From the IMG/VR virus record IMGVR_UViG_2563366960_000002: a stretch of DNA of 64,000 nt; one strand, given 5' to 3'. This DNA is from a virus (lineage: Duplodnaviria > Heunggongvirae > Uroviricota > Caudoviricetes). The number at the start of each line of letters is the position of its first letter. Within the stretch, counting starts at the first letter, position 1. Shown here in pieces: positions 33,361 to 57,133 of this stretch. A model generated the notes under the pieces. It had not been told where the DNA came from, ran no database searches, and saw nothing but the letters and a program-made list of their open reading frames with translations. Both the position numbers and the translations under genes were made by a program.

Positions 33361-33388
33361 ACGGGAGCTTTTTTTTATAACTATTTTA
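33361..33388 (+). terminator. rho-independent terminator
   Basis: AAAGCTCCTACGGGAGCTTT hairpin followed by an 8-T run. Confidence 0.65.
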
Positions 33389-33503
33389 TATAAAAATGCA
33401 TTGATAACATTGTCTGGAGTTTTATGTTAGATTATTAATGTTCTAATAAACTACAATTATTGAGGTAGAGGTTTGTGCCTGTCTGTTAAAGGGGGACTCT
33501 AAA

Positions 33504-34100
33504 ATGGCTGTGATTCCAATGTCGTACTCCCCGGGTACTGTCGCTCGTCGATTTTCGATCCTGGACGGAGTTACCATCCAGGGTGTGCTTTACCAGGTTA
33601 TATGGGATTCCAAAACCCCATTTGCAGCTGTAATAGAGGCTGCGCCTTCTGTTATCGATGGTGATATGCGGCATAAGGTTGTCGCTACTCTTGAACTTCA
33701 ACGTCGCCCGCAGCTTGAAGGTGTACTGGTAAGGAGGTTCTGGGAGGATAGTGATGTTGCCCAAATTGAAGGTATCGTGGTTGATGGAACCGTCCGTGAT
33801 GTCGGTTTAGCTACTTTTGTTTACGAAACCGTAGCCTCAAAAGCTGGTGTTGTTTTGCTTAGTGATAATGAGCAATACGAAGGTGGAAAAGCTCTTTGGC
33901 AACACATCGCCCGTCGCTCTTCCGAGCTAAAAGTGTTTATCCTCGACACCGATGCCGCTCAGTATTACCCGTTTGACGGCGAACGTGTTTGCTATGACGG
34001 GGTAAGTATTCCTGAATCTGAGATATGGAGTGAACACCCAGATCGAAGTAAGCATGGGGTTGTTCTTGTCGCTGAATCCATAACTGGAAAGGCGGCATAG
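33504..34100 (+). CDS. hypothetical protein (possible GNAT-like fold)
   Basis: 198-aa ORF with GGGGGA RBS downstream of an AT-rich promoter-like region. Confidence 0.35.
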   Translation: MAVIPMSYSPGTVARRFSILDGVTIQGVLYQVIWDSKTPFAAVIEAAPSVIDGDMRHKVVATLELQRRPQLEGVLVRRFWEDSDVAQIEGIVVDGTVRDVGLATFVYETVASKAGVVLLSDNEQYEGGKALWQHIARRSSELKVFILDTDAAQYYPFDGERVCYDGVSIPESEIWSEHPDRSKHGVVLVAESITGKAA

Positions 34101-34388
34101 CAGTAAAATTCCTTGCTCCTTAAAAGGGGAGAGGGTTAATCTAGATATGCTAAGCATGGATATGGCCTCAGATTAATGTTAAGCGTCTTGCAGGACGCGT
34201 AATGTTATCTGGGGCTTTCTTCTGTTATTTGTTTGAGTGCTAGGTAGCAAAGAGAGCTAGCATTCATCAGGCAAATCTATCAATAAATAGCGTTAGTTTT
34301 TGTTGTGTGTATGTTTCTTTATTGTTATTGTGTTGTTTGTTTTTTGGACAACGCAATTCCTATAATCTATAGAATAAAGGAAGTATAT

Positions 34389-34676
34389 ATGGCTGATGTA
34401 CGCATTACTTGCATTACCCTCTCCGGCTCGCAATCAATCCATGAGCATATTACTCATGTGGGAAGTCCTCAATTTAATACTAGCAATGGGAAATGGACTG
34501 TTGAGCAGGTAATTAATGCTATTGATAATAATCTCCATACATTCTATGTAACAGATAATGCAGGTAATCGTGTAGAAGTTGGGGTTGTTAATCCTGGTAA
34601 TGGTGGAAGGCAGTTTATTAGAACGTATGCAGACAATCGATGGAATAATAATTTACTATCGCTACCAGTCTGTTAA
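34389..34676 (+). CDS. DUF3892-like small protein
   Basis: ATG at 34389 with AAGGAAG RBS; HEHITHV and C-terminal NNLLSLPVC resemble DUF3892 as I recall it. Confidence 0.4.
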   Translation: MADVRITCITLSGSQSIHEHITHVGSPQFNTSNGKWTVEQVINAIDNNLHTFYVTDNAGNRVEVGVVNPGNGGRQFIRTYADNRWNNNLLSLPVC

Positions 34677-34687
34677 TGTAATTTTAT

Positions 34688-34722
34688 AAAAAAGGCTGCA
34701 ACCTCTGTTGCAGCCTTTTTTT
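34688..34722. terminator. bidirectional rho-independent terminator
   Basis: AAAAAGGCTGCAACCTCTGTTGCAGCCTTTTTTT between convergent genes. Confidence 0.65.
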
Positions 34723-34746
34723 AGCTATTATGACTGAGATAAGCCA

Positions 34747-35802
34747 CTATAAACTCTGAACAAGACGTTCGATTGCTGCACCATATCTTTCTAATGGTTC
34801 ATTATTGATTTGTGGCTCAGTGTCATGGATCTGATATCTGCCTGGTTTTATATCAAATAGAGGTCTTCCTAGATGGGAAGATACTATAGCTACGGAATGG
34901 TTATCTGGCACAGTAAACGTTTTTAAATTTCCGCCTTGGAACGCTGTTGGTTTATTCGTCCGCAGATTTTCAGCTCTATCCCTGATTTCGTCGAACATTG
35001 CCGAAAACGCTTTACTTGCTCGTTTGTCATACTCTGTCGAACGATTAAAAACTAGAGAATGAATGACAGGAACCGCTAGACCAAACTGTTGACACCGATC
35101 GTAAAAGTTAACAGAACGATAATCGTTTTGTACTCCAACGCCATAAACCAACTGGCTTAGGTTATCCACTGCTCGAGCCGAAGAACCATCACTTGAGCAA
35201 GGTATTATAATTGCATTTGCTGCTATCAGTGATAGTTCGGTATAGGCAGAGAAACTGGGGTTGCAATCAATAAAGCAAATGGTTTCTTCGATACCTTGTT
35301 GTTGTGCACATGCAACAAGCAAATCTCGTAGCCACAGGTGGATGCTTTTCCATGAGTCAACTGGTAAGTTTACGCTGCTTAACTGATTGATTACTTGCGC
35401 CTGAACTTCCAGGCTTGGGTCGCCTGCAATCAAAAATACATTGTCAGGGACATGCCCGTTAATTTCAGAGACATGAATTAAGAAACTTGTTTCTGAACCG
35501 GTAAGCATGTGGGGGCTGCGAGTTCTTCTGTCAAAGTACCCACCGACAGTTTTTCGTTGTTGAATTAAGCTCGCGAGGTTAGCAGCACCAGTACCGTTAC
35601 CACCGAGCAATATTTCAGATAAGTTAGCCTGCGGACACATATCTGCAAAAATAATACGCTTTTCTGGATTTTGCCTTGCGTATTCACAGGCCATAGCGAA
35701 AGATAAGTAGGTCTTTCCTACGCCACCTTTATTATTCCAAATAGCATACGATTTCATGGTATCCCCGGCGTTATCTGCTGTTTGTGTGCCAGCATAAGTC
35801 AT
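34747..35802 (-). CDS. orphan ParA/MinD-family ATPase with about 100-aa C-terminal extension
   Basis: Deviant Walker A NNKGGVGKT; probable start at MKSYAIW (GGGGA RBS); no adjacent ParB; downstream of repL. Confidence 0.55.
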   Translation of the reverse strand: MTYAGTQTADNAGDTMKSYAIWNNKGGVGKTYLSFAMACEYARQNPEKRIIFADMCPQANLSEILLGGNGTGAANLASLIQQRKTVGGYFDRRTRSPHMLTGSETSFLIHVSEINGHVPDNVFLIAGDPSLEVQAQVINQLSSVNLPVDSWKSIHLWLRDLLVACAQQQGIEETICFIDCNPSFSAYTELSLIAANAIIIPCSSDGSSARAVDNLSQLVYGVGVQNDYRSVNFYDRCQQFGLAVPVIHSLVFNRSTEYDKRASKAFSAMFDEIRDRAENLRTNKPTAFQGGNLKTFTVPDNHSVAIVSSHLGRPLFDIKPGRYQIHDTEPQINNEPLERYGAAIERLVQSL

Positions 35803-36049
35803 TATGCATCTCCATTACTATCCATGAATTGAGTCAAAAAATATGTAAAAGTAGCAATGTATCACTCTTTTACTCATTATAAACGTTACAAGTTGTGATG
35901 GTTAGCTGTGTTTTTATCAGTACAAGTTTTGATCTGGCTTTGGGTTTTTATATATGGATATGTCTCAAAGATGCCCTGCAAAAGCGATCGCTAACTGTAA
36001 AAAATCAGATTGCATCTCCGACCTCAAACTGAAAACGCCAGGTGACTCC

Positions 36050-36062
36050 AGATTAGAGCAAT
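36050..36062 (-). promoter_or_regulatory. C1-operator-like element (conserved ATTGCTCTAAT core only)
   Basis: Reverse complement ATTGCTCTAATCT at the repL stop, upstream of the ParA-like gene. Confidence 0.3.
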
Positions 36063-38942: not shown

Positions 38943-39160
38943 AAACCCCCCTGAACGTCGGCAGAGAAGGGGAGGCTCCAGTAACTAAGTGAATTGCGCG
39001 AGTCAGTTGAAAAACGGGCAGTAAAAATGCAGGGGCCATCAGGCAATTGAGAGCGTGCTTCGTCTTCTGTTGCTGCGATAACGAAGTGATAGTGACGTTT
39101 TTGGCAGGAGTAAAAGCGCCAGATAAATTCAGGATGAGTTTGGGTAGGGGTAGTAGCCAC
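38939..39160 (-). CDS. icd: Icd-like cell-division inhibitor
   Basis: 73-aa ORF (the size I recall for P1 Icd), GTG start with AGGAGG RBS, overlapping the ant start. Confidence 0.5.
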   Translation of the reverse strand: MATTPTQTHPEFIWRFYSCQKRHYHFVIAATEDEARSQLPDGPCIFTARFSTDSRNSLSYWSLPFSADVQGGL

Positions 39161-39342
39161 AATGGCAGCCTCCTTTTGCTAATTTAAGGAGCTACCGCGT
39201 GAGGTTCCAATCTCAATGGCGGTAGCACTGACTGGGTTGGAACTACCGGCGCAAAAGGGAACCGGCCTGCCTTTCGGCAGCCCAGCCAGCACTACCATTG
39301 ATCTCGGAGCTATGTGCTACGTATGGCTGTGCGATGGCATGA

Positions 39343-39420
39343 CACAAAAAAGACGCTTTTGGCGTCTGTGTCGCCTTTTGCATTATCCGGGGTTCCAATC
39401 CCGGCATCCGTTTTACTAAG
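39343..39420 (-). ncRNA. candidate c4-type antisense regulatory RNA with intrinsic terminator
   Basis: On the - strand: hairpin GCCGGGATTGGAACCCCGG, then GACGCCAAAAGCGTC followed by TTTTTT, between the Op51-like operator and icd; boundaries not resolved. Confidence 0.3.
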
Positions 39421-39493
39421 ATGCCTGTTTAGGATAAACCGAAAATGCATTAGCACGCAAGAAAGTTAATGTAGCATATGAAGCTAAAAAAAC

Positions 39494-39510
39494 AAAATAA
39501 TTAGAGCAAT
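39494..39510 (-). promoter_or_regulatory. C1 operator (Op51-like) at the immI promoter
   Basis: Reverse complement ATTGCTCTAATTATTTT. Confidence 0.55.
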
Positions 39511-39656
39511 TTGCAACCGTGCGAATTATTTCTCAGGTAACTAAAATACATAACTTTAATTGATATAGATCAAAGATTTTGACCATTGCATGGTGAAACT
39601 TTGTGCTACAAAATGTTATTTTAAGGCGTTTTATCTGTGACAGGAGATAGTTAATC

Positions 39657-40007
39657 ATGTCATCTGAACATGTTCGTAAAGGTGTAACAAATGCGAAATT
39701 CAATGAAGAGCAATCTAATATTCTCTTTATTGAAATAGGAATTCTGTCAATACTGATAGGTTTAATATCTAAATCATGGTGGGCTTTTGGCGGTTCTTTT
39801 CTTGGACTGATTTTTAGTTTAAGAATAAAATTTCTGGCAATTCCATTGATGATTGTTTTTAGCTTAGTATGGGGAGCTATTGGCTATAGTATTGGTACTT
39901 TGTTTGAATCAACAGCAGCAAGTATTGTTTTGGGGGTAATTGCTTTCCTGAGTGGCTTGGGGACTCATTTTGCTGCCGTGCAATGGGCAAATGATATTGC
40001 AGAATAA
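39657..40007 (+). CDS. small four-helix membrane protein (cargo cassette gene 1)
   Basis: 116 aa; AGGAG RBS; four hydrophobic segments; AT-rich codon usage. Confidence 0.5.
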   Translation: MSSEHVRKGVTNAKFNEEQSNILFIEIGILSILIGLISKSWWAFGGSFLGLIFSLRIKFLAIPLMIVFSLVWGAIGYSIGTLFESTAASIVLGVIAFLSGLGTHFAAVQWANDIAE

Positions 40008-40029
40008 TTACAGATAAGAAGCGAAAATA

Positions 40030-40506
40030 ATGAATATGAGATTGTTTTTATTGTTTGTATCGTTAATTTCAGCAGGAGCATTTGCAAAAATTGATCCTCT
40101 ACAATGGAATGTGATTGAAGAGAGAGGGGGGAGAGAATATACAATCCATAATCATAATGGTGATAAGATAAGTTTTTTATGTGATATGGGATTCATGTAT
40201 GGTTCACCAGATAGTGCAGGTAGTTTAGGCTTGTTGCTAAGTTCGTCGAATAATAAAAAGGAGTATAATGCTGACAAGAATAAAATAGTATTAACTATAG
40301 ATGGTGAGCAATACCCTTTTAGCAATCTTGGGTCAATGGTTGGAGATTCTTGGTGGTATGCCTTTTGGCAAGATGCAGCAGATTCAAGTGCTAATATGAT
40401 TGATGCTTATGTTGATGATGAAAAAATTGCTACATTCCCTCTTTCTGGGCTAAGTAAGTTGTATCAACAAGCCAAAATGGATGGATGCATTAAACGAGGA
40501 AAATGA
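40030..40506 (+). CDS. secreted/periplasmic protein (cargo cassette gene 2)
   Basis: 158 aa; signal peptide MNMRLFLLFVSLISAGAFA; hydrophilic mature part with two Cys. Confidence 0.5.
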   Translation: MNMRLFLLFVSLISAGAFAKIDPLQWNVIEERGGREYTIHNHNGDKISFLCDMGFMYGSPDSAGSLGLLLSSSNNKKEYNADKNKIVLTIDGEQYPFSNLGSMVGDSWWYAFWQDAADSSANMIDAYVDDEKIATFPLSGLSKLYQQAKMDGCIKRGK

Positions 40507-40547
40507 TCTTTCTGTGTTAAAGATTAACGCAATCAATAAAACATTGG

Positions 40548-41615
40548 TTGCGTAATATTCTATTATATAAATGGAATAATATGACAAAAATTACTAATTC
40601 TAATGAGTTGGAGTTACTGTACAAACAGTCAGTAATCATTCCATCATACAAAGATCACGTAGCGATCTTGCAAAAACAATTAGGAATAGAAAAACATTCT
40701 TTTCAAAATATGACAAGATTGAATAGACAAGCTGTAATTAGTAACGCTCTTCGAAAACAATTGGCTAGTATGCCGAACTTGGCTGGAATAGGCAGCAAGT
40801 ATCGTGAACATATCGCGATTTTACAGAAACAGACACAGGCTCTTTTCCCTCATAACGCAAATAGATATATTCAAATGCTAAGGAAACAGGCAGAAATAGC
40901 TATGCCATTACGAAACCAGCTTGAGATGCTTAATAAGCAAGCTGGTTTAAATAACATGCAAGCGATACTTAAAGAATTACAACAAAGTGCAAGTTATAAA
41001 ATAGATGTAAGCCAAGACATAAAGAAAGTACTAGATCATTATGCTAGAACAAGAAATGCTTCATTACATCAAATAATAGAGCAGGGGCTTTCATCTATTG
41101 CGCAGGCTTATGCTGAAGGTGCTACTGAAACATCACACACCAAAAGTGATGTCCAAAACAAAGGATTAAATAAATCTAATTCAACGTTTGTTGATTCATT
41201 TAAAGAGCTTCCTTATCCGCTGCAATGGTTACTAATGGTTATATTTTCTCAAGTTGTGTTTGGTGCCTTTATTGATTACGGAAAGGAGAAAACCTTATTG
41301 GGAATACACGAGGCAGAATCATACCTTATATCTCTGTTTGAGGATAAACCAATATCAAAACAACAATTAATTAAAGAAAACAAAAAAATTAGTTGGGAAG
41401 ATCTCAATGGTTTTCGTTTTATAACTGGTGAGAACGTAAGATTACACGTCAGTCCTTCTGTAAATAGTGAAGTGATTGAATGCATTGCCAAAAACACAAT
41501 CGTTGCTATTTTAGATAAAAAAGATCGACAATGGCTTTTCGTGCAGGTTAAATCAGGGGACGAGTTTATTACTGGATGGATTACACGAACATATACAAAG
41601 CCTCTTAAGGCTTGA
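40548..41615 (+). CDS. single-pass membrane protein with KQ-rich helical repeats and C-terminal SH3b-like domain (cargo cassette gene 3)
   Basis: 355 aa; repeats HVAILQKQ/HIAILQKQ/IQMLRKQ/LEMLNKQ; TM segment WLLMVIFSQVVFGAFIDYG; C-terminus VRLHVSPSVNSEVI...GWITRTY. Confidence 0.5.
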   Translation: MRNILLYKWNNMTKITNSNELELLYKQSVIIPSYKDHVAILQKQLGIEKHSFQNMTRLNRQAVISNALRKQLASMPNLAGIGSKYREHIAILQKQTQALFPHNANRYIQMLRKQAEIAMPLRNQLEMLNKQAGLNNMQAILKELQQSASYKIDVSQDIKKVLDHYARTRNASLHQIIEQGLSSIAQAYAEGATETSHTKSDVQNKGLNKSNSTFVDSFKELPYPLQWLLMVIFSQVVFGAFIDYGKEKTLLGIHEAESYLISLFEDKPISKQQLIKENKKISWEDLNGFRFITGENVRLHVSPSVNSEVIECIAKNTIVAILDKKDRQWLFVQVKSGDEFITGWITRTYTKPLKA

Positions 41616-41714
41616 ATTTTATCTCCGTACCTTGGGGCTGGGTGTTGATGATGCTACTTGAAGCACTTGAGTTGTTTTAACGTAGTATCTGAAATGTGTA
41701 GACTGACCGGTAAC

Positions 41715-49980: not shown

Positions 49981-50005
49981 ACCCCGTCCGTAGGGCGGGG
50001 TGACA
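49981..50005 (+). terminator. GC-rich hairpin (attenuator-like) before the tail-fibre late promoter
   Basis: TCACCCCG-(9 nt loop)-CGGGGTGA; no T-run, so termination efficiency is uncertain. Confidence 0.3.
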
Positions 50006-50023
50006 AGTTACTTCTCTTACAAT
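50005..50023 (+). promoter_or_regulatory. P1-type late promoter upstream of the R and S genes
   Basis: Palindromic AAGTTACTT, 4 nt, then TACAAT. Confidence 0.5.
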
Positions 50024-50053: not shown

Positions 50054-50488
50054 ATGTCTGACGTCTCAACAAACCTCTATAAGAGTCAGTTGTTGGACTA
50101 TTACTATCAGCGGCGCGCTGAATCGTCCATTAACAAAGGCTCTCGATTTTTAATCAGCAAGGCCGTTTTCGGTACCAGTTCGCTGGTTACCAAGAAAGGA
50201 GATGGCACTTATGAGATTGGAGAACTGCCAAAGGCTTTCGATCTGGCAGAACTGACCAGTCAATTTTGCACCATCAACCTCGTGCCAACCTACTCAGGTG
50301 GGATAATTACTGTCCGAATGGACCTTGATCAAAGCCAGTTGCAGGAAGGGAAAAACTACCCATTCAACACTCTGGTTGTTCTGGATAACGAGAACAAGCC
50401 AATCGCCATTATTTGTGTCCAGGAAGACTCGCTGTATGTGGGCAAAACATATACCGCAGTTATGGCCATAAACACGACTACAGCATAA
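50054..50488 (+). CDS. tail-fibre-associated protein (P1 R position)
   Basis: 144-aa ORF immediately upstream of the S gene. Confidence 0.45.
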   Translation: MSDVSTNLYKSQLLDYYYQRRAESSINKGSRFLISKAVFGTSSLVTKKGDGTYEIGELPKAFDLAELTSQFCTINLVPTYSGGIITVRMDLDQSQLQEGKNYPFNTLVVLDNENKPIAIICVQEDSLYVGKTYTAVMAINTTTA

Positions 50489-50499
50489 GGATATGCTTG

Positions 50500-53424
50500 A
50501 TGAATGACGTTACAGTTGTCACATCGGTTACTTACCCATCACCCGAGTCGTTGGCTCTGGTGGCTGATGTGCAATACCACGAACCATATCTGTCAGCCGC
50601 GCTAAACCGAAAATTCAGGGGGATTGTTGACCCGGGATTTTATGCCGGTTTCTTACCTAAGCCTGGCGGTGGGATGAACCTGTTAATCACCTCAGTGGAT
50701 GGTGATAAAACCGCAGGCGCGGCGTCGGTGGATATTGGTGAATTCTACCAGGTAACTATTCAGCAACGTAAGGATATTTCTCTTGCACTTAGTGCAGGCA
50801 AGAAATATGCAATTGTGCTGAAGGGAAGATACCTCCTTGGAGAAGATACCTATCAGGTGAATACCGCGTCACATATTCATGCGGCTGAATTTGTTGCCAG
50901 AACCTATACCGATTCATATCAGTTAGGAGATGGGGAGCTGCTTGTTTGTACGGTGAATATCCCTGCTGGTGTATCTGCCATTACCCAGGAGATGATTGAT
51001 ACATCCGAGCGTATCAACCGCACGATCGGCATTGATATTTCAGACTCTGTAACCAGTAGCAGAAGTGATGTTGCTGCAAGTTCGCTGGCAGTTAAAAAAG
51101 CTTACGATCTGGCGAAAAGTAAGTATACGGCGCAGGATGCAAGCACAACGCAAAAGGGATTAGTTCAGCTCAGTAGCGAAACTAACAGCGACAGCGAAAC
51201 AATGGCGGCTACCCCTAAAGCCGTTAAGTCTGTAAAAGATCTTGCTGATACCAAAGCGCCAATAGAAAGCCCGAGTCTGACAGGAACGCCAACCGCGCCG
51301 ACGGCAGCGCAAGGTACAAATAGCACGCAGATCGCAAATACAGCCTTTGTTAAGGCAGCTATAACGGCACTTATCAACGGTGCACCTGGCACACTGGATA
51401 CACTTAAAGAAATAGCTGCTGCGATCAATAACGACCCGAATTTCAGCACAACTATCAACAATGCTCTGGCCCTTAAAGCGCCTTTAGCAAGTCCTGCATT
51501 AACGGGAATACCTACTGCGCCTACCGCTGCACAGGGTACGAATAACACGCAGATTGCTACGACCGCTTATGTAAGAGCTGCCATATCCGCACTGGTTGGT
51601 TCATCACCAGAAGCTCTTGATACCCTGAATGAGCTTGCCGCAGCACTTGGCAATGACCCGAACTTTGCGACAACAATGACAAATGCGCTGGCAGGCAAAC
51701 AGCCTCTGGATGCAACTTTAACCGCTCTCGCGGCCCTTGCGACTGGTGCAAACAAACTGCCTTATTTTACTGGTAAGGATACGGTAGCTCAGACTGATTT
51801 AACGTCAGTCGGTCGCGATATTCTGGCTAAAACAAGCACACTGGCCGTTATCCAATACCTTGGTTTAAGAGAACTCGGTACCAGCGGTGAAAAGATCCCC
51901 CTGTTGAGCACGGCTAACACATGGAGTGCGCGCCAGACTTTCAACGGCGGGATCACCGGAGCGCTGACAGGGAACGCCGATACCGCAACGAAATTGAAAA
52001 CAGCCAGAAACATTAATGGCGTCAGGTTCGATGGTTCTGGTGACATTAATATCAATACTATGGTATCGCGTGGTCGCGTAACGGCTCTGGGGGCGAATGC
52101 ACAGGGGACATCCGGGATTCAGCTGTATGAGGCATACAACAATGGCTACCCTTCCCCCTATGGCAATGTGCTTCACCTTAAAGGTGCCACCGCTGCTGGC
52201 GAAGGTGAGTTATTCATTGGCTGGAGTGGCACGAGTGGTGACCATGCGCCCGTACATATCCGTTCGCGGCGGGATACTGATTCTGCTAACTGGTCTGAAT
52301 GGGCGCAGGTCTATACGTCAAAAGATTCCGTTCCCGGCGTTAATGCCAAAGGGAATCAGGACACCTCTGGTAATGCGGCTACAGCGACTAAATTGCAGAC
52401 AGCATGTACTATTAACGGTGTCTCGTTTGATGGTTCTAAAAACATTGAGTTAACGGCGGAAGATTTAAATCTTGAGCAAACCGTAGAATTAGCCGTAGGA
52501 GCATTACAGAAAAACCAGAACGGCGCGGATATTCCAGGAAAAGATACCTTCACCAAAAATATTGGGGCCTGCCGCGCATATAGCGCATGGCTGGATATTG
52601 GTGGCGATAGTCAGGTCTGGACAACCGCGCAATTTATTTCGTGGCTGGAGAGTCAGGGAGCATTTAACCATCCTTACTGGATGTGCAAAGGCTCATGGGC
52701 TTATGCAAATAATAAGGTCATTACAGATACAGGTTGCGGAAATATTTGTCTTGCAGGTGCTGTGGTGGAAGTTATTGGCACTCGCGGCGCAATGACCATA
52801 CGCGTTACCACGCCGAGCACGTCCAGCGGTGGAGGAATTACTAACGCTCAATTCACTTATATTAATCATGGTGATGCTTACGCTCCTGGCTGGCGACGAG
52901 ACTACAACACGAAAAATCAACAACCTGCATTTGCTTTAGGGCAAACAGGAAGCACTGTCGGAAATGATAAAGCTGTTGGCTGGAACTGGAATAGCGGGGT
53001 CTATAACGCAATCATTGGTGGCGCATCGACATTAATCCTCCACTTCAATATGAATACGGGGAGCTGCCCTGCTGTACAGTTCCGCGTGAATTACAGGAAC
53101 GGTGGTATTTTTTATCGTTCAGCGCGTGATGGTTACGGATTCGAAGCTGACTGGTCAGAATTTTACACCACAACACGCAAGCCATCAGCAGGAGATGTTG
53201 GTGCATATACGCAGGCAGAATGTAACTCAAGGTTTATTACAGGTATTCGCCTTGGCGGTCTGTCATCTGTTCAGACATGGAATGGTCCCGGCTGGTCTGA
53301 CAGGTCAGGTTATGTCGTTACGGGTTCAGTTAACGGAAACCGTGATGAATTAATTGATACAACTCAGGCAAGGCCAATTCAGTATTGCATTAATGGAACG
53401 TGGTATAACGCGGGGAGTATTTAA
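50500..53424 (+). CDS. S: tail fibre protein S (constant part joined to the currently expressed variable part)
   Basis: ATG at 50500 with AAGGA RBS (track ORF begins 50413); the gene crosses the left cix site and left inverted repeat; C-terminal half differs from the silent Sv' copy. Confidence 0.8.
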   Translation: MNDVTVVTSVTYPSPESLALVADVQYHEPYLSAALNRKFRGIVDPGFYAGFLPKPGGGMNLLITSVDGDKTAGAASVDIGEFYQVTIQQRKDISLALSAGKKYAIVLKGRYLLGEDTYQVNTASHIHAAEFVARTYTDSYQLGDGELLVCTVNIPAGVSAITQEMIDTSERINRTIGIDISDSVTSSRSDVAASSLAVKKAYDLAKSKYTAQDASTTQKGLVQLSSETNSDSETMAATPKAVKSVKDLADTKAPIESPSLTGTPTAPTAAQGTNSTQIANTAFVKAAITALINGAPGTLDTLKEIAAAINNDPNFSTTINNALALKAPLASPALTGIPTAPTAAQGTNNTQIATTAYVRAAISALVGSSPEALDTLNELAAALGNDPNFATTMTNALAGKQPLDATLTALAALATGANKLPYFTGKDTVAQTDLTSVGRDILAKTSTLAVIQYLGLRELGTSGEKIPLLSTANTWSARQTFNGGITGALTGNADTATKLKTARNINGVRFDGSGDININTMVSRGRVTALGANAQGTSGIQLYEAYNNGYPSPYGNVLHLKGATAAGEGELFIGWSGTSGDHAPVHIRSRRDTDSANWSEWAQVYTSKDSVPGVNAKGNQDTSGNAATATKLQTACTINGVSFDGSKNIELTAEDLNLEQTVELAVGALQKNQNGADIPGKDTFTKNIGACRAYSAWLDIGGDSQVWTTAQFISWLESQGAFNHPYWMCKGSWAYANNKVITDTGCGNICLAGAVVEVIGTRGAMTIRVTTPSTSSGGGITNAQFTYINHGDAYAPGWRRDYNTKNQQPAFALGQTGSTVGNDKAVGWNWNSGVYNAIIGGASTLILHFNMNTGSCPAVQFRVNYRNGGIFYRSARDGYGFEADWSEFYTTTRKPSAGDVGAYTQAECNSRFITGIRLGGLSSVQTWNGPGWSDRSGYVVTGSVNGNRDELIDTTQARPIQYCINGTWYNAGSI
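51848..51873. other. cix-type Cin recombination site (left)
   Basis: TTATCCAATACC-TT-GGTTTAAGAGAA, hix/gix-like dyad at the outer edge of the left inverted repeat. Confidence 0.5.
51858..52472. repeat. left arm of the inverted repeat flanking the invertible tail-fibre segment
   Basis: About 615 bp that is the exact mirror of 55551-56165 (coordinate sum 108023); explains the identical mirrored ORFs in the track. Confidence 0.85.
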
Positions 53425-53426
53425 TT

Positions 53427-53960
53427 ATGATGCACTTAAAAAATATTACTGCTGGCAACCCTAAAACAAAAGAGCAATACCAGCTAACGAAACAATTTAA
53501 CATCAAATGGCTTTATACAGAGGATGGGAAAAACTGGTATGAGGAACAAAAGAACTTTCAGCCTGATACGTTGAAAATGGTCTATGACCACAACAACGTT
53601 ATTATTTGTATTGAAAAGGATGTTTCAGCAATTAATCCAGAAGGCGCAAGCGTCGTTGAGGTTCCTGATATTACAGCAAATCGCCGGGCTGATATTTCGG
53701 GTAAATGGATGTTCAAAGATGGCGTAGTGATAAAGCGAACTTATACCGAGGAGGAACAGAGGCAGCAGGCAGAGAATGAAAAGCAAAGCCTGTTGCAACT
53801 TGTCAGGGATAAAACCCAGCTATGGGACTCACAGCTACGGCTGGGCATCATTTCCGACGAGAATAAGCAGAAATTAACCGAGTGGATGCTCTTTGCGCAG
53901 AAAGTCGAATCTACAGACACCTCCAGCCTGCCAGTAACGTTTCCCGAACAACCAGAATGA
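53427..53960 (+). CDS. U: tail fibre assembly protein U
   Basis: 177 aa, Tfa-family N-terminus MMHLKNITAGNPKT; paralog of the inverted U' copy. Confidence 0.75.
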   Translation: MMHLKNITAGNPKTKEQYQLTKQFNIKWLYTEDGKNWYEEQKNFQPDTLKMVYDHNNVIICIEKDVSAINPEGASVVEVPDITANRRADISGKWMFKDGVVIKRTYTEEEQRQQAENEKQSLLQLVRDKTQLWDSQLRLGIISDENKQKLTEWMLFAQKVESTDTSSLPVTFPEQPE

Positions 53961-53988
53961 GAGAAGGCCCGCTATCGGGCCTTAATTT

Positions 53989-54516
53989 TTATTCAGGCTT
54001 TTGTGGCCATTCAGGATTTGCCGTATCCACACGGCTGACCAGAACGCTGTAGCGTTCCCATGACTCCAGTCGTGCGCGTTCCTCATCCGTCGCCATGTTC
54101 AGCCTGACAGCGCGTTCCAGTGGCTGGATAACTGATTCAGCTTCGGAAAGTAATGCGGCCTTTTGTGATTTGGCCTGTTGTTGCTGTTCGTCTGCCGTAT
54201 AAATCCGCTTAACTACAGCCCCGTCCTTAAACATCCACTTACCGGAATCATCAGCACGACGATTAGCTGTAATATCAGGAACCTCAACGACGCTATAACC
54301 TTCAGGGTTAAGCGTGGAGGCATCTTTGGTGATGGCGACAATAATATTATTTGCATCGTAAACAATCTTTATTGTGTCTGGCTGAAAGTTTTTCACTTCC
54401 TCATACCAGTTTTTTCCGTCCTCAGAGTAAAGCCAGATAACTCCGTGTTTCTTTGTTAACTCATACTGTTCCAGTGTTTTAGCGTTACCCGCTTTTATGT
54501 TCTTTAAGTGCATCAT
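53989..54516 (-). CDS. alternative tail fibre assembly protein U'
   Basis: 175-aa paralog of U on the opposite strand inside the invertible segment. Confidence 0.75.
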
Positions 54517-54517
54517 A

Positions 54518-56119
54518 TTAAACGCTCGCTACATTATACCAGGTGCCATTTATATACTTTTGAACGGGTCTGTAATAAACGCCCGCTATATTATCGGCAG
54601 AGTTGGACCCTGTATCCTGAACATTAATACCAGACAATACATGACCTGACGGGCACTGGAAATTCCATGTTTGCCAGTTGTTCACTCCATAATATTGCTG
54701 TGAACCAAGTCGAACATCTTTCACATATCTGGAATCAAAATTGCCATAGTTTCCGGGAATAACTTGCGCACCGCAAAGCCAGTTTCCGTTATTATCCATG
54801 TACGCCTGACCATCGGTGCCATTGGCTGTCCTTGAATTATTAATCATGTAAAAACCAAACTGGTAGTTACCAAGTCCACCGACAAAAAATTTGCGTTCTG
54901 CATGGTCTTGTCTTAACAAAGCCTGCGCAGAACTTGTTGATACTGCGTTTCTACCAAAAATGACATTCTGGTTTCGCATATCAATCCATGAGGTTGAGCC
55001 ACTATTAATAGCAAACCTGTTTGCATACACCCAGGCGTTAGTTGTTATATCTCCTGTAACATCCAGACCATGCCCCATAGTTATGCGGCCAGTTCTGAGA
55101 TTAAGCGTAAAGGGACGTAGTGGCCCTATATCACCATTTTCCCCCTCATTCTCTCGTGTAGGGATGATATGCAGGCATTCTTCAGAACGGCGAAAAATGG
55201 CACCAAAAGATGAATTAAATATCCTCAGTGCATTGACTGTCGATATTTTTACTTCACTGCTGAAAAGGGCTTTAACAAGAACAGACAAAGCATCCCATTT
55301 AAGATTCATCAGGTCTTTTGTTGTGGTGCTCTGGCGGCTTCTCCATTTGAAATATTCATTTCCGTTGTCGCCTGTTTCAAACCACATGTATGAATCAGTA
55401 TCGCTGTCGGCATCATTTTTAAATCCAATCTTTGCCCAGTCAGTATTTCGAATCCAGGCAAGGATTGAGTCATTTTCAAAAGTAAGCCCGCCGGACAAGA
55501 TATCGCCTGAACGCTGAACGGCATTATTTGCTTTATTAATGAATTCCTGTAGATTTAAATCTTCCGCCGTTAACTCAATGTTTTTAGAACCATCAAACGA
55601 GACACCGTTAATAGTACATGCTGTCTGCAATTTAGTCGCTGTAGCCGCATTACCAGAGGTGTCCTGATTCCCTTTGGCATTAACGCCGGGAACGGAATCT
55701 TTTGACGTATAGACCTGCGCCCATTCAGACCAGTTAGCAGAATCAGTATCCCGCCGCGAACGGATATGTACGGGCGCATGGTCACCACTCGTGCCACTCC
55801 AGCCAATGAATAACTCACCTTCGCCAGCAGCGGTGGCACCTTTAAGGTGAAGCACATTGCCATAGGGGGAAGGGTAGCCATTGTTGTATGCCTCATACAG
55901 CTGAATCCCGGATGTCCCCTGTGCATTCGCCCCCAGAGCCGTTACGCGACCACGCGATACCATAGTATTGATATTAATGTCACCAGAACCATCGAACCTG
56001 ACGCCATTAATGTTTCTGGCTGTTTTCAATTTCGTTGCGGTATCGGCGTTCCCTGTCAGCGCTCCGGTGATCCCGCCGTTGAAAGTCTGGCGCGCACTCC
56101 ATGTGTTAGCCGTGCTCAA
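54518..56119 (-). CDS. alternative tail fibre variable segment Sv' (promoterless in this orientation)
   Basis: N-terminal 180 residues identical to an internal stretch of S (inside the inverted repeat), then a different C-terminal domain. Confidence 0.75.
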
Positions 56120-56165
56120 CAGGGGGATCTTTTCACCGCTGGTACCGAGTTCTCTTAAACCAAGG
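55551..56165. repeat. right arm of the inverted repeat flanking the invertible segment
   Basis: Mirror of 51858-52472. Confidence 0.85.
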
Positions 56166-56175
56166 TTTAGGATTG
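56150..56175. other. cix-type Cin recombination site (right)
   Basis: TTCTCTTAAACC-AA-GGTTTAGGATTG, abutting the cin stop codon. Confidence 0.5.
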
Positions 56176-56727
56176 AAATGATGACGCAGGAAACTTTTTA
56201 TAAAGCGTGGAAACAGCAACATCATAGATGATTGCAACCTGCTTACGGGGGATGCCATTCTCCAGCAATCGACGCATTTGCTGCCATGTTTCTTCTTGGT
56301 ATTTAGGCCGACGGCCTCCTATTCGACCTTCTGCGCGAGCTGCATCAAGTCCAGCGCGTGTACGTTCAACGATAAGCTCGCGTTCCATTTCAGCCAGCGC
56401 CCCCATTACGTGAAAGAAAAAACGCCCCATTGGTGTACTGGTGTCGATAGAGTCAGTGAGACTCCGGAAATTAATTCCTCTGTCACGCAGCTCTTCCACC
56501 AGCACAACCAAGTGACGCATGCTGCGCCCAAGACGATCTAACTTCCATACGACCAGGGTGTCACCTCTGGAAAGCATACGCAAAACCTTTTTTAGCCCAG
56601 GGCGTTCAGTCTTTTTGCCGCTCGCCTTATCCTCAAAAATTAGCTCACATCCTGCGCTTTCAAGGGCATTTCGTTGCAAAGCAGTGTTTTGTTCATTTGT
56701 TGATACGCGTACATAGCCGATCAGCAT
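56167..56727 (-). CDS. cin: Cin site-specific DNA invertase (serine recombinase, Hin/Gin/Cin family)
   Basis: 186 aa; N-terminal GYVRVSTNEQ with catalytic Ser; C-terminal helix-turn-helix; adjacent to a cix site. Confidence 0.9.
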   Translation of the reverse strand: MLIGYVRVSTNEQNTALQRNALESAGCELIFEDKASGKKTERPGLKKVLRMLSRGDTLVVWKLDRLGRSMRHLVVLVEELRDRGINFRSLTDSIDTSTPMGRFFFHVMGALAEMERELIVERTRAGLDAARAEGRIGGRRPKYQEETWQQMRRLLENGIPRKQVAIIYDVAVSTLYKKFPASSFQS

Positions 56728-56848
56728 GATTTTTACTCTAATGCGTTGTTCTTATGAGTCTGCGAATTTTAAAGAACAAAGCGTTATGCACAGAAATAAC
56801 AATCTGAATAGGTTCCTGCTTGATTTTTGTTAGATCCGGGAGGAGCTT

Positions 56849-57133
56849 ATGCAGATTTTGATTTTTTTAATGTCCATTATTAGTGGAACCTATTTATTTC
56901 TTACTGGAGTTAGGCGTGGAGCTTATAAGCCATGTTTTTTACATTGGCTTGAAGCATGGCTGCTTGCCATAAAAGGTGGTTTTGTTGGTTTTTGTCTTGC
57001 AGAAGTTCAGTGGGGAAACTCATTTTTGAATGTGGTTGCTTTTTTGATATGTAGTTGGAATAGCCATTTTGTATTAAGAATAACCAAAATATGGGTTTTT
57101 CACTTGATTTACGAATGTATTGGCAAATTATGA
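56849..57133 (+). CDS. small hydrophobic protein encoded in an AT-rich insert
   Basis: 94 aa; strong RBS GGGAGGAG; two to three hydrophobic helices; composition clearly more AT-rich than flanking backbone. Confidence 0.4.
   Translation: MQILIFLMSIISGTYLFLTGVRRGAYKPCFLHWLEAWLLAIKGGFVGFCLAEVQWGNSFLNVVAFLICSWNSHFVLRITKIWVFHLIYECIGKL

Follow-up and report, generated by a model that had tools for sequence, protein, structure and literature searches.

A predicted Cin/cix invertible C-segment in the tail-fibre gene of a P1/P7-type phage-plasmid genome

The tail-fibre region of the window, by which we mean the whole stretch of 64,000 nucleotides that was analysed, begins on the plus strand with a late promoter, LPs (50005–50023), identified by alignment to the LPs annotated in P1 and P7. 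Its -22 box (50005–50013) and -10 box (50018–50023) are identical to those of both phages, with one difference in the spacer, and it drives R, S and U from a position outside the invertible segment. R (50054–50488, plus strand), a tail-fibre structure or assembly gene, is the open reading frame upstream of S and is collinear with gpR of P7 and P1. As now assembled, S is a single open reading frame of 974 aa (50500–53424, plus strand), with an ATG at 50500 and a match to Pfam Phage_fiber_2 at 2.6e-29. It consists of a constant part, Sc (50500–51860), a part encoded by an inverted repeat (51861–52479) and a variable tip, Sv (52480–53424); the preliminary description was therefore correct in joining Sc to the variable part that ends at 53424. 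The expressed Sv tip shares 97.8% identity with Mu S', 96.8% with P7 gpS and 87% with P1 Sv', and it matches PDB 8ju3, a solved Mu fibre structure, at 3e-214.

Downstream of S lies U (53427–53960, plus strand; 177 aa), the tail-fibre assembly chaperone gene of the present orientation, with a Pfam Caudo_TAP match at 4e-36 and 98% identity to Mu U' and 96% to P1 U'. Convergent with it is U' (53989–54516, minus strand; 175 aa), the silent alternative chaperone gene, which matches Caudo_TAP at 5e-37 and is 91–92% identical to P1 U, Mu U and P7 U' (91% for Mu U). Between the two, a consensus scan and inspection of the sequence located a G+C-rich hairpin followed by a T-run (53964–53983, plus strand), which we regard as a putative terminator. 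The silent alternative fibre C-terminus, Sv' (54518–56162, minus strand), comprises a unique tip (54518–55543) and a repeat-encoded remainder, and lacks its own start codon in its frame context. It had been described as promoterless, in agreement with a consensus scan in which no sigma-70-like promoter was positioned to drive it from its upstream end. The silent tip shares 87% identity with P7 Sv', but only 65% with Mu S and 63% with the P1 S tip (P1 Sv); it matches PDB 5yvq (Mu S) at 1.6e-134.

A repeat search detected two inverted arms of 630 nt, the left at 51850–52479 and the right at 55544–56173, which are 99% complementary with a spacing of 3064 nt. Base-by-base comparison showed that they contain a perfect core of 616 nt (51857–52472 and 55551–56166), so that the repeat previously given as 615 bp (51858–52472 and 55551–56165) is present but was one base short. 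At the outer edges of the arms lie two 26-bp sites in inverted orientation, each with the core AA in its own orientation. The cixL-type site (56150–56175, plus strand) reads TTCTCTTAAACC-AA-GGTTTAGGATTG, with its central dinucleotide at 56162–56163, and overlaps the final codons of cin. The cixR-type site (51848–51873, minus strand) reads, as the reverse complement, TTCTCTTAAACC-AA-GGTATTGGATAA, with its central dinucleotide at 51860–51861. The site quoted in the preliminary description, TTCTCTTAAACCAAGGTTTAGGATTG, was found at 56150–56175, and its partner at 51848–51873 has the reverse complement TTCTCTTAAACCAAGGTATTGGATAA. The position assigned to these sites was accurate, and the interval proposed for the element, 51848–56175, coincides exactly with their outer edges; calling them merely hix-like fell short, because both 26-mers are identical at 26 of 26 positions to the cixL and cixR annotated in P1 and P7. 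Shuffled sequence gave an expectation of 0 chance matches to the full site, and no third full cix site occurs in the 64-kb window, where a scan with a relaxed core pattern returned only the two real sites at one mismatch or fewer to the cix pattern. A third cix-like or pseudo-cix site, of the kind that would allow multiple inversion as in Min of p15B, was considered and rejected, since the relaxed core pattern matched 36 times against 33 expected by chance.

Measured between the central dinucleotides of both cix sites, the invertible C-segment spans 51861–56162 (4302 bp). It is located within the tail-fibre gene S and carries U, the hairpin, U' and, on the opposite strand, the silent Sv'. Inversion of this segment in silico retained both cix sites and joined Sv' as the 3' part to an in-frame S' of 1001 aa, which ends exactly at the Sv' stop at 54518. 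The promoter and the constant 5' part are outside the segment, and the two opposed 3' parts, each with its chaperone gene, are in frame in both states. The open reading frames found bear out the layout originally proposed, in which the repeat within S brackets U, U' and Sv' and cin is placed directly outside.

The cin gene (56167–56727, minus strand) encodes a serine DNA invertase of 186 aa, with Pfam Resolvase (3.8e-51) and HTH_7 (2.4e-18) domains and a match to PDB 3uj3 (Gin) at 2e-89; the residue Ser9 is present in MLIGYVRVSTNEQ. Its product is identical to P1 Cin at 184 of 186 positions, the two exceptions being T40 (A40 in P1) and N157 (K157 in P1), and differs from P7 Cin at a single residue (K39 here, Q39 in P7). 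Within the 5' part of cin, the interval 56638–56709 (minus strand) matches the annotated P1 enhancer at 69 of 72 positions, and its part 56642–56709 matches the putative enhancer annotated in P7 at 68 of 68; by this conservation it is assigned as the probable sis recombinational enhancer with its presumed Fis-binding sites. Upstream of cin the sequence is the one found in P7, down to the C1 operator annotated as Op(lydC), and it bears no relation to the P1cin/P2cin promoter region of P1. A simple consensus scan found no sigma-70 consensus promoter for cin. The predicted C1-repressor operator, annotated as Op(lydC) in P7, lies at 56732–56748, 5–21 nt upstream of the cin start codon, and agrees at 11 of 17 positions with what we take to be the C1 consensus.

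In each 25-kb third of the window, 79–91% of the sequence matches P1, P7 or P1-like phages at approximately 97–98% identity, and the matched P1/P7 genes include repA/parAB, repL, kilA, ant, sit, bplA, darA and lydABC. Judged by this similarity, the window is a P1/P7-type phage-plasmid genome (Punavirus). No identical record was found in the phage, PLSDB and E. coli complete-genome collections, in which the best matches reached 96–98%, and the GTDB representative genomes yielded no exact match to a 48-mer of the silent tip or to the cixL 26-mer. Two stretches that diverge from P7 returned no defence matches with PADLOC.

The closest comparison is with P7 (AF503408), in which the whole locus is collinear at 93–98% identity and in the same orientation, with the same cix 26-mers, the same cin upstream region and an identical enhancer. 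The Sv' arm of P7 has no equivalent of positions 55673–56018 of the window, and consequently its C-segment measures 3998 bp and its repeat arms are unequal. In addition, U is intact here but divided into Ua and Ub in P7. P1 (AF234173, NC_005856) presents the same order of LPs-R-Sc, cixR, a 0.6-kb repeat, Sv, U, U', Sv', a second 0.6-kb repeat, cixL and cin, with identical cix sites, approximately 96% identity in Sc and the repeat, and an annotated C-segment of 4256 bp. In the deposited P1 C(+) sequence, however, the unique part is inverted relative to the window, so that Sv-U of the window corresponds to Sv'-U' of P1.

The unique 3-kb core of the window shows about 91–93% DNA identity to the G-segments of Mu, SfMu and D108, whereas neither the Sc constant part nor the genome backbone is related to Mu. 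Of the 26 positions of cixL, 7 are different in the Mu gix sites (TTCCTGTAAACCGAGGTTTTGGATAA). The inverted repeats of Mu are short, unlike the 0.6-kb arms. Cin, like Gin, Hin and Pin, belongs to the Din family of serine DNA invertases. It shares its family with Hin/hix (flagellar phase variation in Salmonella), Pin/pix (e14) and Min/mix (p15B), which are serine invertases of about 190 aa that recombine imperfect 26-bp dyads around a 2-bp core. Hin inverts a promoter rather than gene ends, and Min of p15B serves six crossover sites and many cassettes, compared with only two sites here.

By homology, the element is in a C(-)/G(-)-like state. Because the expressed Sv/U pair is of the Mu S'/U' and P1 Sv'/U' type, the segment is flipped with respect to the P1 reference, although it is collinear with the P7 record; the tip left silent here is the one resembling Mu S and P1 S. 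Both orientations occur among relatives. Junctions in PLSDB were in the as-is orientation in 70 cases and inverted in 22, and IMG/VR loci with an exact cixL comprised 6 as-is and 12 inverted. Two E. fergusonii plasmids, NZ_AP028829 and NZ_AP028849 (each 122,823 bp), carry the same cix sites as the window and, once the segment of one has been turned around in silico at the cix cores, show 0 differences over 14,213 nt; inversion of the C-segment is the sole difference between these siblings across 14.2 kb. Polymorphisms in the repeat arms place their crossover no more precisely than within 449 nt, cix core included, and for this reason the action of Cin is inseparable in this pair from RecA recombination in the identical arms.

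Taken together, we consider the region to be a Cin/cix invertible C-segment of a P1/P7-type phage-plasmid, with a probability of roughly 0.93. The preliminary description, which named the classic P1/Mu-type switch, is supported: all structural elements of the P1 Cin/cix system, including the sis enhancer in cin, are present and intact and match the curated annotation of P1 (AF234173) and P7 (AF503408). In the proposed mechanism, LPs and Sc lie outside the segment, which holds the two opposed S 3' ends, Sv-U and Sv'-U'. Cin would bind both inverted 26-bp cix sites, be activated by the Fis-bound sis enhancer within cin, cut at the central AA/TT dinucleotide and then rotate the segment, with the result that either Sc-Sv with U or Sc-Sv' with U' would be transcribed. 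As only one of the two pairs of S and chaperone would be transcribed, progeny virions are proposed to carry one of two receptor-binding tips and to differ in host range. For Cin catalysis, the dependence on Fis and the enhancer, and the effect on host range, this reading draws on established work on P1 and Mu (Iida et al. 1982 and 1984; Lobocka et al. 2004), in the form in which it is cited in PMC6906374, PMC10999674 and PMC13172314, the latter two also reporting the P1 host-range data. That this particular element would flip, and would depend on Cin to do so, we infer from homology.

One alternative is that the switch is complete but frozen, with Cin (T40/N157) or its expression defective, so that the segment would be fixed in its Mu S'-type state and the silent cassette would be a relic. 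The window is one sequence and shows one orientation only; of the two Cin substitutions relative to P1, T40 is not shared by the sibling plasmids shown to flip, which carry A40; the cin upstream region differs from that of P1 and gave no consensus promoter in the scan; and P1-like plasmids with a degenerate cin or C-segment do exist (PMC6906374). Set against this are a full-length Cin with the catalytic serine and both domains far above threshold, the conserved cix sites and enhancer, intact Sv' and U' reading frames, and arms perfectly homogenised over 616 nt. Moreover, the upstream region that departs from P1 is the one found in P7, whose record annotates an invertible C-segment. We consider a frozen switch very unlikely; the element is intact and probably switch-competent.

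Less probable still is that inversion proceeds mainly by RecA-dependent exchange between the 616-bp identical arms, with Cin and cix dispensable. The arms are long enough for RecA, and the 449-nt crossover interval of the sibling plasmids fits an exchange anywhere in the outer repeat. This model nevertheless leaves the conserved 26-bp sites exactly at the repeat edges without an explanation, and genetic mapping in P1 traced C-segment inversion to cin and to crossover at the cix sites (Iida et al. 1982, EMBO J, as cited in PMC6906374), the same gene, sites and enhancer being conserved here. There is a negligible likelihood that misassembly, through a fold-back or a duplicated repeat, created the inverted repeat. 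One IMG/VR contig does fold back in this way, with cin-cixL at each end, and demonstrates that assemblers do mishandle this locus; the unique flanks here, however, differ between the two sides (Sc versus cin) and the same architecture is present in finished P1, P7 and RCS47 and in many complete plasmids.

The Cin/cix switch itself is already known and well described, and the window contains an ordinary example of it; our analysis adds little beyond correctly recognising a programmed DNA inversion that is among the oldest known. In practice it serves annotation and host-range prediction for this P1-like phage-plasmid, and the locus also illustrates how such elements come to be broken or folded back here during assembly. 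The cin upstream region raises a further, rather improbable idea. Since a predicted C1 operator lies upstream of cin and the P1-type cin promoters are absent, C1 could, in the P7-type version, repress Cin synthesis and fibre switching in the lysogen and release them on induction; if true, such control would tie diversification of the host range to the choice of the lytic path. A more modest but likewise improbable idea is that the silent tip, at only 63–65% identity to P1 S and Mu S, could bind a receptor recognised by neither. As sequenced, the element would make fibres of the Mu S'/P1 S' type, which the P1 literature ties to O-antigen-bearing hosts such as Shigella flexneri and E. coli O3 and not to K-12-type LPS core (PMC10999674, PMC13172314).

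The tail-fibre locus of the window carries a Cin-invertible C-segment, and its reading in the preliminary description as a P1/Mu-type Cin switch is supported, as all the features that define the Cin/cix system at the sequence level were present. The switch is a system already known, and its 0.6-kb repeats, enhancer and host-range role have been described since the 1980s (PMC6906374; PMC10999674; PMC13172314). Mapping of the parts with the curated P7 (AF503408) and P1 (AF234173) annotations and local BLAST gave a one-to-one correspondence. The late promoter LPs (50005-50023), whose -22 and -10 boxes are identical to those of P1, is followed by R (50054-50488), collinear with gpR, and by the tail-fibre gene S, a single 974-aa ORF running from the ATG at 50500 to 53424. 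The chaperone gene U lies at 53427-53960 (Caudo_TAP, 4e-36), and a hairpin with a T-run (53964-53983) stands between it and the convergent U' (53989-54516, minus strand; Caudo_TAP, 5e-37). The minus strand also holds the alternative tip Sv' (54518-56162), in frame after inversion, and the invertase gene cin (56167-56727).

Between 50000 and 58000, a repeat search identified a single dominant inverted repeat with 630-nt arms (51850-52479 and 55544-56173), 99% complementary and separated by 3064 nt. Base-by-base comparison placed its perfect core, of 616 nt, at 51857-52472 and 55551-56166, one base longer than the 615-bp repeat (51858-52472 and 55551-56165) first reported, which is otherwise real; every mismatch falls either in the outer half of a terminal 26-bp site or past the inner edge. 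The interval originally proposed, 51848-56175, coincides exactly with the outer limits of these two sites. The cixL-type site quoted at that time, TTCTCTTAAACCAAGGTTTAGGATTG, is found at 56150-56175, and its partner at 51848-51873 reads TTCTCTTAAACCAAGGTATTGGATAA on the other strand. Both 26-mers occupy the annotated cixL and cixR positions, respectively, in P1 and P7, with 26/26 identity to each phage, and are also present in two plasmid relatives. The full 26-bp site would not be expected to arise by chance (0 of 100 shuffles), and a relaxed core pattern applied to the whole 64-kb window returned only these two sites at one mismatch or fewer, with no third cix site. On the plus strand the core dinucleotide is TT at one site and AA at the other, so the sites lie in inverted orientation, the geometry for inversion rather than deletion. 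Within each repeat arm, a 78-nt sequence recurs as a direct repeat at 51970-52047 and 52369-52446, mirrored at 55577-55654 and 55976-56053; its copies are 71% identical and 399 nt apart. The arms are full length in the window, whereas P7 has a deletion in its Sv' arm and lacks an equivalent of 55673-56018; since this stretch falls between the two direct-repeat copies, recombination between them may have caused the loss.

Cin contains Resolvase and HTH_7 domains, is identical to P1 Cin at 184 of 186 residues with Ser9 kept in MLIGYVRVSTNEQ, and matches Gin crystal structures at 2e-89. The enhancer equivalent, at 56638-56709 within the 5' part of cin, is identical to the annotated P1 enhancer at 69 of 72 positions, and the stretch annotated in P7 is fully conserved (68/68); as in P1, the last cin codons overlap the outer half of cixL. 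In-silico inversion of 51861-56162, bounded by the two central dinucleotides, restored both cix sites, because their inner half-sites are identical, and the constant part Sc then ran in frame into Sv', yielding a 1001-aa S' that stops at window position 54518, a single base away from where U' begins. A simple consensus scan detected no sigma-70-like promoter positioned inside the segment to drive Sv', consistent with its earlier description as promoterless. This particular copy, sequenced in one orientation and encoding the T40/N157 Cin allele, is a candidate switch.

The tip labels assigned earlier need care: the locus is collinear with the P7 record, but its unique part is inverted relative to deposited P1, and in local BLAST window 51850-54880 corresponds to the reverse strand of P1 locus 7727-4722. 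In protein comparisons, the expressed tip (52480-53421) shares 97.8% identity with the C-terminal part of Mu S', 96.8% with P7 gpS and 87% with P1 Sv', and matches PDB 8ju3 (Mu S/S') at 3e-214; its chaperone U shares 98% identity with Mu U' and 96% with P1 U'. The silent tip, which matches PDB 5yvq at 1.6e-134, is 87% identical to P7 Sv' but no more than 65% identical to Mu S and 63% to P1 S, and the silent chaperone U' shares 91-92% identity with both P1 U and Mu U. Since the expressed pair is of the Mu S'/U' and P1 Sv'/U' type, the element is caught in a C(-)/G(-)-type state by P1/Mu nomenclature. In P1, the ligands of S are LPS outer-core sugars and those of S' are O-antigens (PMC13172314), and adsorption to Shigella flexneri 2a and 5a and E. 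coli O3 is described for phage whose C-segment is turned the other way (PMC10999674); by analogy, we infer that these receptor and host assignments would carry over to the window.

Judged by sequence similarity, the window belongs to a P1/P7-type phage-plasmid. In megablast against phage records, 49900-57200 matched RCS47 and P7 best (93% coverage, 95% identity), then P1, D6 and others, and its inner 3 kb also matched the G-segments of Mu, SfMu, D108 and P88 at 91-94%. The remaining two thirds of the window gave matches to P1 or P7 at about 97-98% identity, with matched genes including repA/parAB, repL, kilA, ant, sit, bplA/B, lydABC and darA; searches of phage records, PLSDB and complete E. 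coli genomes returned no identical record. The locus departs from its nearest relatives in minor ways that leave the kind of system unchanged: U is intact, in contrast to the Ua/Ub of P7, the leader of cin is of the P7 and not the P1 type, and the expressed tip is near-identical to Mu S'.

Outside the locus, ARAGORN identified five tRNA genes at 14951-17150 on the minus strand (Met-CAT, Ser-TGA, Thr-TGT, Tyr-GTA and Arg-TCT), a set that looks different from that of P1, which is described as having three tRNA genes of other specificities. Two stretches gave no megablast match to P7. The first (33375-36051, 2.7 kb), in place of upf52.1/rapB/rapA, encodes an ORF without a Pfam match (33504-34100), a DUF3892 ORF (34305-34676) and, on the minus strand, a ParA/MinD-like AAA_31 ATPase (34747-35802), and yielded no PADLOC match to defence systems. 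The second (39131-41709, 2.6 kb) contains two ORFs without a Pfam match (39657-40007 and 40030-40506) and an ORF of 355 aa (40548-41615) that weakly matches SH3_3; it occupies the ImmI-proximal position (upf50.5/upf50.0 in P7, sim in P1), known as a hot-spot of variation in P1-like plasmids (RD-3; PMC6906374).

The sole lead to anything new, and a speculative one, lies in the cin leader. The region upstream of cin (56728-56860) is P7-like and unrelated to the P1 region with the P1cin/P2cin promoters. It includes a predicted C1 operator, annotated in P7 as Op(lydC), at 56732-56748 (tttactctaatgcgttg), which agrees at about 11 of 17 positions with the C1 consensus. Given that this operator maps 5-21 nt before the ATG of cin, C1 might also affect cin expression.

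Natural inversion was found among relatives. PLSDB was queried with two junctions, the sequenced one and its in-silico inverted form, which at a coverage of at least 80% returned 70 and 22 records, respectively. Among 47 IMG/VR loci with an exact cixL, 18 were informative (6 window-like, 12 flipped). Numerous other IMG/VR loci end near cixL, and one metagenomic contig (IMGVR_UViG_3300012281_000016, 1-5293) has cin-cixL at both ends around one C-segment; its ends are reverse-complement identical over 520 nt, and it is a fold-back misassembly at an invertible locus. Both orientations occur in a Japanese E. fergusonii plasmid series, with a 4:4 division among eight related IncY/IncQ1 P1-like plasmids (NZ_AP028829, NZ_AP028849 and six siblings). 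The two named plasmids, both of 122,823 bp, share the same cix 26-mers and encode a Cin one residue apart from that of the window (A40 versus T40). Comparison of the deposited sequences gave 2266 differing positions, all of them between 7156 and 10545 of the locus; with one inverted in silico, there are 0 differences over 14,213 nt. Inversion is thus shown in these siblings, but repeat-arm polymorphisms narrow the crossover no further than to 449 nt around and including the cix core, and on this evidence Cin and RecA are inseparable as its source. The Japanese series constitutes a ready-made natural data set on switching.
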